A stretch of 64,000 bases of DNA, taken from IMG/VR virus record IMGVR_UViG_3300042373_001362, positions 64,001 to 128,000 of that record. One strand, written 5' to 3'. The notes beneath the pieces are model-generated. The model did no database searches, was not told the origin of the DNA, and saw nothing but the letters and a program-made list of their open reading frames with translations. Positions 50,500 to 63,909 of this stretch are shown here, piece after piece. The DNA comes from a virus. The translations under genes and the position numbers were made by a program. Each line of letters starts with the position of its first letter. The first letter of the stretch is position 1.

Positions 50500-50653
50500 A
50501 GTCGCTTTTCCTCTCGGCTCGCTTGTTTCTCTCAACATTATCTCAACCCACCCTCAACCGACAAATCTTTATCTGTGAGGCGGGGCTCACAGATAAAGAA
50601 GCACTCAGTGTCGGGGGGTGACACTGAGTGCTTACTGGAGAGAATTGCTGGGG

Positions 50654-50806
50654 CTAAACGCCCTTGGCGATGAGCAGGTCTATCAAGACGACGAGACGCT
50701 GGGCGTCCATCTCGCTCTTTGTGATTCTGCCACGCTTGAGCTGGTCGTCCAACTTCTCCAACTGGAGAAGGGCTTGTTCTATTGGGGATGTCGCTGTTGT
50801 TTCCAT
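50654..50806 (-). CDS. Leaderless 50 aa SHOCT-like microprotein (not in the ORF track)
   Basis: METTATSPIEQALLQLEKLDDQLKRGRITKSEMDAQRLVVLIDLLIAKGV; ATG at motif+36. Confidence 0.75.
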   Translation of the reverse strand: METTATSPIEQALLQLEKLDDQLKRGRITKSEMDAQRLVVLIDLLIAKGV

Positions 50807-50842
50807 AAGAACAGCCTAGCATCACCCACCCCAGGCCGACAA

Positions 50843-50858
50843 TGTTTCACGTGAAACA
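50843..50858. promoter_or_regulatory. parS: parS centromere-like site
   Basis: Perfect TGTTTCACGTGAAACA. Confidence 0.85.
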
Positions 50859-50924
50859 TTTTGCCCGACAAGAGCCCCGATGGCTAACTTGTCGGGCAAG
50901 GGTGGGTCGGAGTAAGGTGGAGGT

Positions 50925-51089
50925 ATGAACACGGCACCAGAAAAACTGACCAACCACCAAATGCTCAACAAGATTGAGGAAGTGATGAACTCCTTCGAGC
51001 ATCGCCAAGACTGGAGCGACACGGACAGGAAGGTCTTCCTCAGCCTCCACGAGGCTTGGAAGGCACTCGCTGAAGCAGTCGCCCTCTAG
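50925..51089 (+). CDS. Leaderless 54 aa microprotein (not in the ORF track)
   Basis: MNTAPEKLTNHQMLNKIEEVM...; ATG at motif+36. Confidence 0.75.
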   Translation: MNTAPEKLTNHQMLNKIEEVMNSFEHRQDWSDTDRKVFLSLHEAWKALAEAVAL

Positions 51090-51201
51090 GAAGTGAACGC
51101 CCCTCCAGTGGGGGCGTTCTTTCTACGCAAGCCCCGTTTGCGTAGAAAGAACGCTTGTGGCTGATTTGTCGGCTAAGGGTGGGTCGGTGTAAGGTTTGGG
51201 T

Positions 51202-51510
51202 ATGGAAACAACAGCGACAACAAAAGCAGCAATCATCGCAGAGTGGTACGACAACCGCTTCGGTGCGGAAGTGTTCGGAGCACTCATCAACATTCTCCGT
51301 CTCGCAGGAGCAACGGAGTTCACAATCCCAACCGCTTGGCTTGACTTTCAGCCCAACGGTCGGGAAGGCGAGATTGCTTTCCGCTTCGCCCACACGCTCT
51401 CTTGGGAGAACGGTGAGACAGCACCAGTCATCAAGGCTCTCCGTGAAGTAGCCCGTATCAAGTCGGTGGATTGGGACACAGACGCTCCGAGAGATTGGGA
51501 CTACGACTAG
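51202..51510 (+). CDS. Leaderless hypothetical protein (METTAT...)
   Basis: ATG at motif+36. Confidence 0.8.
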   Translation: METTATTKAAIIAEWYDNRFGAEVFGALINILRLAGATEFTIPTAWLDFQPNGREGEIAFRFAHTLSWENGETAPVIKALREVARIKSVDWDTDAPRDWDYD

Positions 51511-51553
51511 TCCCAACTTGTCGGCTAAGGGTGGGGTGAACTAAGGTATGGGT

Positions 51554-51751
51554 ATGACATCAACAGCGAAATGGATTAGCGAACTCCCAACAGTAGAGGA
51601 GTGCGACAAGGAGATTGCTCGCCTCTCTTACTGGCTGGAAACAAAGCGATACGAGATGAGCGCACGAGAGGCAGTTGCCCTCGCTGACCGTATTCGGACT
51701 TGGGAGAAAAAGCGCATTTGGGCGAGACGCTACGGAAAGTGTGACTACTGA
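51554..51751 (+). CDS. Leaderless hypothetical protein
   Basis: ATG at motif+36. Confidence 0.75.
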   Translation: MTSTAKWISELPTVEECDKEIARLSYWLETKRYEMSAREAVALADRIRTWEKKRIWARRYGKCDY

Positions 51752-51927
51752 TGAAGAAGTACAGCGCAACAATCTCTCTGTTCATTGACGAGTTTGAGGC
51801 AGAGGACAGAGAGAGTGCTAGGGCGATTGTCGGCAAATACATTGACCACCTCATTGACATTTGTGAGGTCAATGAGGGCGAACTCACTTGGGGTGGGGTA
51901 GACGAGTCAATAGAAGAAGAACAGTAA
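51751..51927 (+). CDS. 58 aa acidic microprotein
   Basis: TGATG coupling; MKKYSATISLFIDEFEAEDRE... Confidence 0.6.
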   Translation: MKKYSATISLFIDEFEAEDRESARAIVGKYIDHLIDICEVNEGELTWGGVDESIEEEQ

Positions 51928-51943
51928 GAGAGACGGGGCTCTC

Positions 51944-52090
51944 TTACTTCTTTTTCTTTATCGTGTAGCCGTTTGCTTTGAGGTCTTTGACTATCCGTTC
52001 TGGAATGCCACCCCAAATGGGGATACCAGAAGAGGCCAGTGAGCGAGCGATAATGTCAAGCTTTTTCTTACGGTGGAGTTGTCTGAACAT
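51944..52090 (-). CDS. 48 aa basic microprotein
   Basis: MFRQLHRKKKLDIIARSLASSGIPIWGGIPERIVKDLKANGYTIKKKK. Confidence 0.5.
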   Translation of the reverse strand: MFRQLHRKKKLDIIARSLASSGIPIWGGIPERIVKDLKANGYTIKKKK

Positions 52091-52145
52091 TCTGAAAGCA
52101 TACAACGATTTGTCGGCCTGGGGTGGGGTGGACTAAGATTTAGGT

Positions 52146-61644: not shown

Positions 61645-61745
61645 GGGAATGAGGGAACCGAAAGGTTCCCTTTACCCGTATTGAGCCCCGGTATTGGCTG
61701 CATCGATTGCGCAGCAGAAATCACTGCGGCACAAAAGTACTGCTG

Positions 61746-61946
61746 CTAGTCTTCCGGCAAATCGTCGTATTCGTCGAGCCTGGAGATAAGGTCAGCTTTC
61801 TCTTCTTCGGTCATCGACAGTGCAGCTTCGCTTGGCCGGTACACCCACTCCCCATCTTCTCTCATTGCTACATCGAGCAGCCCGGCTTTCACCATCAGGT
61901 ATAAGTCGCGGGCCAGGTCATCAGTTGTGTATTCGCTATTTGCCAT
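61746..61946 (-). CDS. Small acidic protein, probable paralog of 43682-43897
   Basis: LMVKAGLLDV..REDGEWVY..SEAA..MTEEE. Confidence 0.65.
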   Translation of the reverse strand: MANSEYTTDDLARDLYLMVKAGLLDVAMREDGEWVYRPSEAALSMTEEEKADLISRLDEYDDLPED

Positions 61947-62033
61947 CCAGGCAGCATAGACCGGATGGCAGCAAAAACACGGGGCTCAAAACAGATTTGT
62001 CGGTTAGGGGTGGGGGGTAGTAAGGTGGTTCTT

Positions 62034-62240
62034 GTGAGGGAGACCCACCGCCTCTCCTCCGATACAACCGAATCGCACCAGTCCCTCCGCAGGATAAGGC
62101 TCTGGACAGCAAGCCTCTGATGGGCGTACGACCATCAAGCATCCGCCACAGTCCACCCGTCCTCCCTCTCGCGCGATAACTGCTCTAGGCTCGGGGGTGC
62201 TAGCCCCAGTATCGGAGGTGGGGCGGGGGGTCTTTTTCTT
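62034..62240 (+). ncRNA. Putative structured ncRNA 1 (~205 nt)
   Basis: Starts at +1 of the motif at 61997. The 5' AGACCCACCGCCTCTCCTCCGATAC pairs with the 3' GTATCGGAGGTGGGGCGGGGGGTCT, followed by a U-tract. Paralogous to 63668-63876. Confidence 0.75.
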
Positions 62241-62309
62241 TGTGCCAAAAGCGGGGCTTGGCACAAAGAAAGTTTGTCGGTCGTGGGTGGCCTGTTCTAA
62301 GATTGTCTT

Positions 62310-62612
62310 ATGAAAACAACAGCGAACAACGAAACAAGGGCAGCAATGAACGCTGCGTATCTAAACCCATTCGTCACGACATTGACTCTTGACGAAGTGC
62401 CGCACAAACGCAAATACACAAAAGAGCTGCGGGCTGGAGATTTCGTGGCCGTGTTTGTCAGCACCTCTCAGAAAGTTTGGGAAGGCTATTTTTCTTGGAA
62501 AGAAATCCGGACGATTGCTGCGACCCCTCAGGCCTATGTCCTGAAGTTCACAGACGGAACAGACGAACGACACCCAAAGTTCTCAGCAGGTAAATGGGAA
62601 GTGATGAAATAA
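62310..62612 (+). CDS. Leaderless hypothetical protein
   Basis: ATG at motif+36. Confidence 0.8.
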   Translation: MKTTANNETRAAMNAAYLNPFVTTLTLDEVPHKRKYTKELRAGDFVAVFVSTSQKVWEGYFSWKEIRTIAATPQAYVLKFTDGTDERHPKFSAGKWEVMK

Positions 62613-62730
62613 CCCGCCGGAATTTCCGGCAGCCGCACGCACGAGTGGCTAGCCCCGCTAGCCACTAATACGTGAGTGCTCCTCTTTCGTAAATTGTCGG
62701 TTAGGGGTGGGTGGGTGTAATGTTGGAGAC

Positions 62731-63027
62731 ATGAACACAACAGCAACAACACACACACAGTCAGCCCAACTAATTGACGATGCAACCCGTGAGGGTCGCC
62801 TCTATCACTTCAACGGTGGGCAGGCATACATCAAAGCAAGTGAGGACGATGTTCTCCTAATCATTGACATGACACAGGAAACACCCGACTTCACTTACCA
62901 CTATGGTGAGTTTGCCTCTAACTACTTCCGTAACAACCACCCACAGCCCACAGACAGGGAACCACTTGTTCCGTTCTACGCAGAAGTGGACAAAAGAAAA
63001 TTGTCGGTTCAGGGTGGGAAGAACTAA
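62731..63027 (+). CDS. Leaderless hypothetical protein; its 3' end reads through the next promoter
   Basis: ATG at motif+37. Confidence 0.75.
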   Translation: MNTTATTHTQSAQLIDDATREGRLYHFNGGQAYIKASEDDVLLIIDMTQETPDFTYHYGEFASNYFRNNHPQPTDREPLVPFYAEVDKRKLSVQGGKN

Positions 63028-63036
63028 GATAGAGAC

Positions 63037-63219
63037 ATGGAAACAGCACAAGCATTCATCATCGTCACTTGGTTCTTGGTCAAGTGTGCAGGACTCGCAA
63101 TCTTTGCAGTCGGCGCATACACCACTATCCAATGGATTAGGAAAAATGTCTCATTCTTCACTTACGAAGATGTAGACCCATCAGAAGACCCCGACTGGGT
63201 TCGGGAAAACTACGGATAA
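63037..63219 (+). CDS. Leaderless small membrane protein
   Basis: ATG at motif+36; one hydrophobic helix. Confidence 0.75.
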   Translation: METAQAFIIVTWFLVKCAGLAIFAVGAYTTIQWIRKNVSFFTYEDVDPSEDPDWVRENYG

Positions 63220-63667
63220 CAATCCGTAGACAGCGACAGCGAGAAAGTTCTTGCTCCCAGTTTGTCGCTGTACTGGTTGAGCAGAAAGAGAAAGAGTCAC
63301 TTTCGGGTGGCTCTTTCTCTATGTGGAGCCCCGGTTCTCCGGACAAAAAGAAAGAGCCCCAGCAATAAAGCTGAAGCTCCTCTTTCCTTGTGACTCACCA
63401 TTAGAGCTCTCAAGGAAGAGCTTATGTCTGGTCGTGAGCCAATCCAGCAAGGGGGACTTCCTTACCCGATAGTTGGTATCTGCCGATGTCCCTAACCCAA
63501 TCGAGCTAAGTACGGTTTCGTTCCTCAACAGCAGTGTCCCTGACTGATAGGTAAACATTACCAGCATTTCTCCAGCTTGTCAACTCAGATAGTCGTGGCC
63601 TCAATCTAGGCAACGGGGCTCATTTCCCGATTTGTCGGGTCAGGGGGGGTGGTGATAAATTGGTCTT

Positions 63668-63876
63668 GTGAGCGAGGCTCTTCGCCTCTCCCACACACAA
63701 CATAAGTGCATAGTCTCCCTTCTGGATAAGGCTCTTGTCACTGCGATATCCTCTCCACTCTCCGGAAGTGCGATGTTCCCTCCAGTCAGACAATCCGTCC
63801 TCCTCTGAATAGACCTCTCCTTATGGGGGTGACGACCTCGTGTGTGGGTGGGGCGAAGGGGCTCGCTCTTTCTTTT
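63668..63876 (+). ncRNA. Putative structured ncRNA 2 (~205 nt)
   Basis: Starts at motif 63632+36. The 5' GAGCGAGGCTCTTCGCCTCTCCCACACAC pairs with the 3' GTGTGTGGGTGGGGCGAAGGGGCTCGCTC, followed by a U-tract. Confidence 0.75.
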
Positions 63877-63909
63877 ACATAGGGGCAAGCCCCGTCTTGC
63901 CCCTATGTA

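Follow-up and report, generated by a model that had tools for sequence, protein, structure and literature searches.

Why would hairpins that share no stem sequence carry the same few nucleotides at their tips? A 64,000-nucleotide stretch of viral DNA raises this question. The stretch, hereafter the window, comprises bases 64001–128000 of the 148,355-bp phage genome IMGVR_UViG_3300042373_001362, a single contig whose ends close on themselves through a 127-bp overlap. Positions are those of the window unless marked "genome". An earlier note on this DNA described approximately 22 hairpins in 50566–63909 with unrelated stems and a conserved AGCCCCG core. In the present study, "the word" denotes AGCCCCG (C form) or its complement CGGGGCT (G form), and GCCCCG is its core hexamer. 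The finding proved to be larger than originally noted: the word belongs to a family of lake phages with genomes of approximately 150 kb, occurs in one arm of the chromosome only, and has been purged elsewhere. We propose, with a probability of roughly 0.4, that the word is read on the DNA by a putative phage factor and marks the early arm for the control of early transcription.

We searched 50500–63950 for inverted repeats in which a perfect stem of 8 bp or longer encloses a loop of 3–14 nt. Thirty-five perfect hairpins were detected, 20 of which contained the word, and three more copies sat in imperfect hairpins. Unrelated stems around a common core are thus a genuine feature of this region; however, the claim that the apex always carries the word holds for these 20 and fails for the other 15. 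The centre of the word was no more than 3.5 nt from the hairpin axis in 20/20 cases, and the word-bearing perfect hairpins occupied 7.5% of the bases but held 20 of the 31 heptamers in the range. The stems shared no sequence, and the conserved part was the apex, which reads AG-CCCCG(Y)-CT. The flanking AG/CT belongs to the stem, and since AGC/GCT is often paired as well, nine hairpins are CCC or GGG triloops. Genome-wide, 41 of 48 perfect stems of at least 9 bp fell at 110–145 kb. Dinucleotide shuffles of the window contained the word 4.1 ± 1.9 times (maximum 9), compared with 39 copies in the actual sequence.

The distribution of the word along the chromosome was more striking than its position in hairpins. 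All 60 copies in the genome lay within genome 101.5–145 kb, an arm of approximately 44 kb, and none in the first 100 kb. The arm begins at 37548 in the window, runs to its last base (64000), and continues for approximately 17 kb beyond. Of the copies of the core hexamer GCCCCG, 64 were in the arm and two in the remainder of the genome, where 15–21 were expected. The same pattern was found in five complete relatives, in which every copy (16–38 each) was located in one arm of 32–34 kb. Outside the arm, observed and expected counts of GCCCCG were 5 vs 21.3 in G001, 9 vs 22.4 in G003, 1 vs 11.7 in G005, and 1 vs 14.5 in G006. GCCCCG ranked 3–23 among approximately 2050 under-represented hexamers in the late parts, and its neighbours in this ranking were palindromic restriction sites and -10-like words. 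The arm contains individually promoted leaderless microgenes together with genes for an SNF2 helicase, DUF932, and ThyX; the other 100–140 kb of these genomes carries structural, packaging, and replication genes. Orientations alternated along the arm without strand skew. One relative, L131/G006, appeared to represent a word-less clade; it is in fact a 65% fragment that does not include the arm, and GCCCCG is purged from it all the same.

Two side observations concern these late parts. The late part of the present genome (genome 0–100 kb; window 1–36000, loci L275–L278) avoids palindromic restriction sites, such as GGCGCC (2 vs 40 expected) and GCCGGC (0 vs 17 expected). It also avoids words whose complements read TANNNT (TATACT, TACACT, and TAGACT), and relatives avoid similar words (TATGAT, TAGAAT, and TAAGAT). 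The depletion of this set looks like avoidance of -10-like hexamers, which fits a host RNA polymerase that starts from a -10 element alone. Separately, the end of the 103-kb viral contig of L131 (L131:14900–15332) is a long tandem array of ACGCACG-type units, and this array may be the reason why the assembly halts before the early arm.

To which phages does the word belong? Relatives were collected through the SNF2-family helicase of the arm (47717–49627, minus strand), the gene of which contains two copies of the word itself; 397 viral contigs encode such a helicase. Nearly all of the 80 contigs examined among these roughly 400 carried the word at 10–30 times the expected frequency, and AGCCCCG was the most over-represented 7-mer in the related loci. 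L127 contained 43 copies in 20.5 kb (3.2 expected), L161 24 copies in 12.8 kb (0.7 expected), L176 32 copies in 21.8 kb, and L181 31 copies in 18.3 kb. The enrichment in one third of the genome, the avoidance in the rest at a level resembling that of restriction sites, and the presence of both in hundreds of lake contigs indicate that selection on the word is strong, old, and specific.

The relatives differed in how the word is displayed. In nine related loci, 206 of 263 copies were inside open reading frames (ORFs), in all six frames, with 107 in the sense and 99 in the antisense direction. The SNF2 genes of relatives hold several copies, and the copies scattered through coding DNA in these loci are not in hairpins. 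In four of the five complete relatives, most copies formed convergent pairs, AGCCCCG-N16-20-CGGGGCT, the two halves of which make up the conserved stem of a hairpin ahead of every early promoter. Some clades accept the variant AGYCCCG. In the SNF2 protein tree, the word was found throughout, and each of its three displays (hairpin apex, hairpin stem, and scattered in genes) was typical of particular clades. The apex display is limited to the present phage with L114/L193 and, probably, the L161 group. Thus, the look of a conserved loop on a variable stem, obtained from one genome, is one of three interchangeable displays of a plain sequence word. The earlier note had argued for a strand-independent signal at the DNA level rather than a feature of RNA terminators, and this agrees with the copies of relatives in ORFs on both strands. 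However, it had taken the hairpin or its loop as the thing recognised, which we reject because most relatives are equally enriched in plain coding DNA, without a hairpin, or use the word as the stem.

The word was identical in loci of 43–61% G+C that differ in early-promoter consensus. This constancy suggests that a reader would be carried by the phages and not by a particular host; it probably travels with the phage. Three distant relatives, L232, L195, and L196, in which a 184-amino-acid protein is 43–60% identical, do not have AGCCCCG. Other heptamers are over-represented in both orientations in these loci: CGAGCGC in L232 (17 vs 1.7), CCTTATC in L195 (15 vs 1.5), and AGCCCTA in L196 (11 vs 1.3). 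It may be that these heptamers are counterparts of the word whose specificity has changed. The AGCCCTA signal partly resembles a repeated coding motif. The contigs anchored on the 184-amino-acid protein differ in synteny, so that the joint occurrence of SNF2 and the word among them carries no information.

Are the palindromes of the present phage simply factor-independent terminators, with a common loop as a by-product of descent or of loop stability? Their location at the 3' ends of upstream genes, directly before the next promoter and in some cases between convergent genes, is in line with such a role, as is the maintenance of pairing in evolution. The latter was apparent from comparisons with L193, the only fairly close relative of the array (70–75% nucleotide identity), which follows the same design: almost all of its promoters have the word, in one orientation or the other, 20–50 nt upstream. 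At seven of nine orthologous junctions, both genomes had the word in the same orientation. The stems at these junctions were either unrelated or altered on both arms with perfect pairing. The L193 ortholog of the hairpin at 52355 retained the outer ACGCA/TGCGT and carried the word the same way round, with an inner stem that differed on both arms; the homologous stem of the hairpin at 62235 differed at matching positions on both arms. Such changes at two junctions, a small sample, indicate that the palindromes are maintained as structures in this clade. The ratio of G-T to A-C at the first unpaired position, which could separate RNA-level from DNA-level stems, was 15:3 in the present genome and 2:6 in L193, two opposite trends. 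Furthermore, U-tail-poor hairpin terminators have been discussed for Actinobacteria, and the nearest capsid relatives of the phage are actinophages (the capsid protein is 48% identical to its Gordonia phage counterpart). However, terminators normally have variable loops and conserved stems, and the reverse applies here. Both complements of the word occur in the transcript, few word-bearing hairpins passed a classical terminator scan, which agrees with the earlier remark that a U-tail is usually missing, and relatives have the word in excess outside hairpins and have cleared it, like the present phage, from the late arm. As an account of the word, the ordinary terminator is largely refuted, and we give it the least credence of the explanations considered.

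Individual copies of the word are conserved in place. Between relatives, 100 of 151 aligned copies were conserved, approximately twice the rate of composition-matched control words from the same alignments (393 of 1229). The spacing of the copies followed a rule that depends on orientation. Same-orientation neighbours less than 200 bp apart were observed 8 times against 79 expected, whereas convergent pairs 40–200 bp apart were observed 66 times against 31 expected; among close pairs, convergent ones were far commoner than divergent ones.

This rule speaks for an enzyme that tracks along a strand, with each orientation of the word serving one direction of travel. The word could attenuate a helicase-nuclease in the manner of Chi, serve for loading or priming, or form head-to-head pairs of sites for a translocating ATPase, for example the SNF2 protein encoded nearby or a Type III/ISP-like enzyme. 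The word is oriented and of Chi-like length, copies on one strand keep a minimum spacing of approximately 200 bp while copies on opposite strands may be close, and convergent pairs are favoured. Moreover, the phage encodes an SNF2 helicase, a Cas4-like PD-(D/E)XK nuclease, Endonuclease VII (Endo VII), and a primase-helicase. However, the arm has no strand skew, one would not expect a signal for protection or priming to have been cleared from two thirds of the genome, and the word is constant across G+C content and promoter type, unlike host-specific Chi. No methylase to accompany a restriction-like enzyme was found when C5 and N6/N4 families were searched (PF00145 and PF01555 were absent from the genome; other methylase families were outside this search). 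We consider strand tracking to be doubtful.

The spacing data also bear on base pairing between the C form and the G form in RNA or single-stranded DNA, either as stems in cis in the relatives or as kissing loops in the present phage, for example in transcript processing or decay. The C and G forms occur in near-equal numbers, copies close to each other are inverted more often and direct less often than expected, and several clades have a conserved stem built from both forms. However, the word is mostly buried in nine hairpins of the present phage (AGC-CCC-GCT triloops), convergent pairs greatly outnumber divergent ones despite equal pairing ability, and isolated copies in coding DNA are conserved. 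Pairing as the function of the word is very improbable.

Does the word delimit modules that are exchanged? The hairpin, promoter, and microgene follow each other in a cassette-like layout, the array is a mosaic between the present genome and L193 with cassettes partly common and partly unique, stems at orthologous junctions have been replaced outright, and hairpin arms duplicate adjacent functional sequence. Convergent heptamer pairs also resemble inverted core sites. These features favour an attC-, REP- (repetitive extragenic palindromic) or PeSL-like (promoter early stem-loop) recombination or nicking site that shuffles cassettes, with the word as its core and the palindromes as the folded substrate or as scars of foldback synthesis. 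However, no tyrosine recombinase (PF00589; controls positive), serine recombinase, or Y1 HUH transposase (PF01797, the family of REP-associated tyrosine transposases, RAYT) was found in the complete 148-kb genome, which speaks against the attC/REP-like site suggested in the earlier note. Copies in relatives are often inside conserved genes, such as that for SNF2, copies are conserved in place, and, in contrast to integron cassettes, all of the cassettes come with a promoter of their own. The suggestion that modules break at the word also found no support in relatives with the word inside genes: 249 homology breakpoints from 14 pairs of such loci were at a median of 353 bp from the word, no nearer than random points (268 bp). 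We regard recombination or nicking at the word as unlikely; the palindromes themselves could still have a part in cassette turnover.

We return to the reading that a phage factor recognises the word. An oriented 7-bp word is kept at approximately one copy per kb per strand in one arm of 32–45 kb. In the mechanism that we consider most likely, a sequence-specific protein that binds to or tracks along DNA would use it to distinguish between the early and late arms. The putative reader would then control early transcription, e.g. by shut-off through promoter occlusion beside the -35 element and roadblocks within genes, and any copy that strayed into the late arm would do harm and be purged. In the present genome and its nearest relatives, a perfect palindrome directly upstream of the -35 element opens each early cassette. 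Selection keeps these palindromes paired, and the word has been placed on their axis. They would most likely fold in the upstream transcript as terminator or insulator hairpins, with the TTTGT of the promoter as a shared short U-tract; approximately ten hairpins have this TTTGT within 5 nt downstream. The placement of the hairpins at the end of the upstream gene and before the next promoter fits such a role, as in PeSL cassettes. The distribution of the word, its purge, its independence of strand and frame, the conservation and spacing of its sites, and its clade-specific display are observed; a protein reader, its phage origin, and a transcriptional output are what we infer. The broader proposal, that this phage family splits its chromosome into two domains by means of a 7-bp oriented word read by a putative phage factor, is one that we hold tentatively.

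Several points weigh against this proposal. Pfam scans of the conserved early-arm proteins gave no DNA-binding candidate. Our candidates for the reader are guesses: a protein with a sigma-region-4-like helix-turn-helix (30812–31459), and ParB_N and histone-H1-like (L277:3675–4331) proteins, which are both encoded outside the window. For a site bound by a protein, seven bp is short. Neither orientation-dependent spacing nor the strong preference for convergent over divergent close pairs is predicted by simple duplex binding, which also leaves the exact placement on the axis in this clade unexplained. The stoperators of mycobacteriophages, which are the closest precedent and are discussed below, are oriented with transcription, whereas the copies of the word are not. 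In addition, the label "early" derives from promoter type and gene content only. Since the spacing rule and the axis placement are unexplained by duplex binding, several rivals stay alive.

One of these is a sequence-specific DNA modification made by the phage, in which the word is the target and the arm-specific modified pattern is what matters. The targets of such systems are short and are read on the duplex in either orientation. The phage also encodes a PAPS (phosphoadenosine phosphosulfate)-reductase-like protein (L277:4957–6096, minus strand) adjoining a ParB_N protein (L277:6486–7292, minus strand), which together form an IbrA/IbrB-like pair, a DUF1599 "nucleotide modification associated" protein (L274:16938–17558, plus strand), and ThyX. 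The IbrA/IbrB-like pair and the DUF1599 protein together hint at chemically modified DNA. However, the genome has no methyltransferase of the C5 or N6/N4 families searched, and the IbrA/IbrB-like, DUF1599, and ThyX genes have no known specificity. Moreover, a target alone explains neither the tenfold enrichment in the arm, nor the purge, nor the spacing rule. Modification is quite improbable as the reason for the word.

The hairpins of the present phage belong to an array of very small genes (50889–63975, plus strand), each with its own copy of one promoter, TTGTCGG-N4-GGGTGGG..TAAGGT, and each hairpin forms the left border of one cassette. We found 44 strict copies of the promoter in the genome, 40 of which were on the plus strand between genome 114.9 and 141 kb; nearly all array promoters point rightwards. 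The start codon lies 36 nt (35–37) from the start of the -35 element in array promoters; therefore, the transcripts should be leaderless. Most word hairpins are just upstream of a leaderless promoter, and a perfect word hairpin was present 0–27 nt upstream of 17 of the 44 promoters. On the transcribed strand of these 17, the word was in the C form 11 times and in the G form 6 times, and in the 20 perfect hairpins AGCCCCG was on the plus strand in 9 and CGGGGCT in 11. Because the promoters are co-directional, these ratios bear out the earlier statement that orientation is about half and half and independent of transcription. A scan of viral contigs with the pattern TTGTCGG-N4-GGGTGGG yielded single chance matches only. 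Relatives keep the leaderless layout but use another promoter consensus (GGTTGTGG..GCCATAATG in L127). In the search for near-identical relatives, a cassette protein matched only the L114/L193 contig, and the best identity in a metagenome scan was 60%.

All six hairpins quoted in the earlier note are present, although two stems needed correction. The hairpin at 50566–50599 has a 14-bp stem, CGGGGCT at its apex on the plus strand, and a minus-strand promoter 1 nt away; that at 51114–51154 has a 17-bp stem and the loop GCCCCGT, and is preceded by a word-less hairpin at 51095. The hairpin at 55866–55903, between convergent genes, has a stem of 16 bp, not 14, with CGGGGCT on the plus strand. The 13-bp stem at 58657–58688 carries the loop CCCCGT 5 nt from the promoter at 58694, while the hairpin at 61359–61395 has a 17-bp stem with a 3-nt loop (triloop form) and abuts the promoter at 61396. 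The last, at 63876–63909 (14-bp stem, loop CCCCGT), is followed by the palindrome GTTTCACGTGAAAC and a promoter at 63932. As described earlier, some arms include functional sequence. The right arm of the imperfect hairpin at 50861–50899 (AGCCCCG on the plus strand) is the -35 TTGTCGG, that of the imperfect hairpin at 52778–52816 (apex AGCCCCGGCT) overlaps TTTGTCGG at the -35, and that of the 12-bp stem at 60390–60421 (CGGGGCT on the plus strand) also overlaps a -35 TTGTCGG. The 10-bp stem at 51923–51948 spans both convergent stop codons, with CGGGGCT on the plus strand.

Among the remaining hairpins, those with CGGGGCT on the plus strand near a promoter are at 52355–52388 (11-bp stem, 3 nt from the promoter at 52392), 55577–55598 (8-bp stem, 4 nt from the promoter at 55603), 59840–59873 (14-bp stem, 9 nt from the promoter at 59883), and 62235–62271 (14-bp stem, 2 nt from the promoter at 62274). 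The same form is found at 53836–53858 (8-bp stem, within or at the start of an ORF), at 57101–57119 (8-bp stem, triloop form), and at 61016–61042 (10-bp stem). Triloops with AGCCCCG on the plus strand occur at 59290–59310 (9-bp stem) and 62644–62666 (10-bp stem), and the 10-bp stem at 54967–54989 has the AGC-CCC-GCT triloop form. The 17-bp stem at 56276–56318, with the loop AGCCCCGCC, abuts the promoter at 56318, and the 8-bp stem at 57727–57754 has a 12-nt loop beginning with GCCCCG. In tandem hairpins, the word is only in the promoter-proximal one. Word-less perfect hairpins were noted directly upstream of word-bearing ones at 50599–50633, 51095–51119, and 52751–52780 and at genome 128286–128322 and 129116–129154. 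The pair at genome 128286 and 129116 share homology and lie behind paralogous genes of approximately 100 amino acids.

Other repeats were noted in these arms. A 20-bp perfect palindrome, AATGTTTCACGTGAAACATT, is present in three copies in the genome (50841–50860, approximately 63909–63927, and genome 130454 [L274:2454–2473]), located between divergent promoters or just upstream of array promoters. Near-identical copies are found in L127 (approximately 6265–6285), L114, and L193. This recurrence within the genome and among relatives makes AATGTTTCACGTGAAACATT a likely operator for a dimeric regulator, conserved across the family. The early arm of L127 also contains intergenic clusters of two to three DnaA-box-like TGTGGATAA repeats (approximately 4470–4520, 9000–9070, and 9660–9720), with ten copies in 20 kb. 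These clusters may be an origin or a DnaA sink.

The phage encodes a terminase, a portal protein, baseplate proteins, ribonucleotide reductase, and the enzymes named above. The 215-amino-acid protein with the sigma-70 region-4-like helix-turn-helix (30812–31459, plus strand) is encoded directly after the primase-helicase gene, and the Endo VII gene (34717–35268, plus strand) is flanked by two tRNA genes. Neither sigma-70 region 2 nor a T7-type RNA polymerase was found in a search of the genome. A search of Rfam returned tRNAs only, and DNA searches against sequenced phages returned one tRNA match and nothing else. An ORF of 3490 amino acids prompted us to consider an N4-like phage in which the hairpins are promoters for a virion RNA polymerase (vRNAP). 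This candidate was ruled out; the ORF has no RNA polymerase match, and instead matches an exonuclease domain and a MuF-type head-morphogenesis domain (polyvalent protein).

How does the word compare with known systems? We found no described counterpart, in agreement with the earlier note. The closest composites are the PeSLs of T4-like phages, in which a stem-loop that ends the upstream transcript is likewise coupled to an early promoter, and the unit recurs among the small accessory genes of a plastic genome region (PMC2839356, PMC4122927). The present phage is not T4-like. It shares with PeSLs a hairpin followed by a sigma-70-type promoter (17 of 44) and the mosaic structure of the array relative to L193. 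However, the design is the opposite. In PeSLs, it is the stem that is conserved (G-run, loop, C-run) and the loop that varies (PMC4122927), whereas the stems described here are unrelated and the apex is fixed. In a non-exhaustive search, the papers on PeSLs made no mention of a word that fills coding DNA yet is purged elsewhere.

The N4 vRNAP promoters resemble the present hairpins as DNA hairpins with a defined loop in an early region; however, hairpin orientation sets the direction of transcription in N4, where a giant vRNAP is used, whereas orientation is random here and the 3490-amino-acid protein is of the MuF type. Integron attC sites are also structured palindromes at cassette borders, with a 7-nt core and an otherwise variable sequence. 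However, their core sites are at the ends of an imperfect palindrome, their cassettes are promoterless, and an IntI-type recombinase acts on them, whereas the word is on the axis of a perfect palindrome, the cassettes have their own promoters, and no such recombinase is encoded in this genome. In REP elements and bacterial interspersed mosaic elements (BIME), stems are conserved within a genome and a RAYT is involved; here, the stems are unrelated and there is no RAYT.

Mycobacteriophage stoperators are many asymmetric sites for one monomeric repressor, which stops elongation at them (PMC9283540). In cluster A, they are 13-mers that are oriented with transcription, spread genome-wide in short intergenic spaces, and serve temperate immunity (PMC9283540). 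The word is similar in that dozens of copies of one asymmetric site are present in a phage genome. It differs in being a 7-mer, in having both orientations, in its restriction to one arm, and in belonging to a phage without an integrase.

Chi, the FtsK-orienting polar sequences (KOPS), and the uptake sequences of bacteria (uptake signal sequences, USS, and DNA uptake sequences, DUS) are short asymmetric words whose density, approximately one copy per kb, is maintained by selection. Coding DNA carries them in every frame, and DUS/USS sometimes form terminators as inverted pairs. All are genome-wide, and Chi and KOPS are strand-skewed. The word has the Chi-like trait of an over-represented oriented 5–8-mer and does not have strand skew or genome-wide presence; its copies show no skew, are confined to one third of a viral genome, and are actively excluded from the rest. 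Intragenomic domain marking would be a new kind of system in viruses, outside the described families of sites, and the arm-specific word suggests that viruses can label part of their chromosome in a manner not described before. The identification of its reader would explain how the early and late programmes are separated or how the first part of the genome is protected or processed, and could supply a compact 7-bp protein–DNA recognition pair. Chi, KOPS, uptake sequences, and stoperators each led to a piece of DNA-handling machinery.

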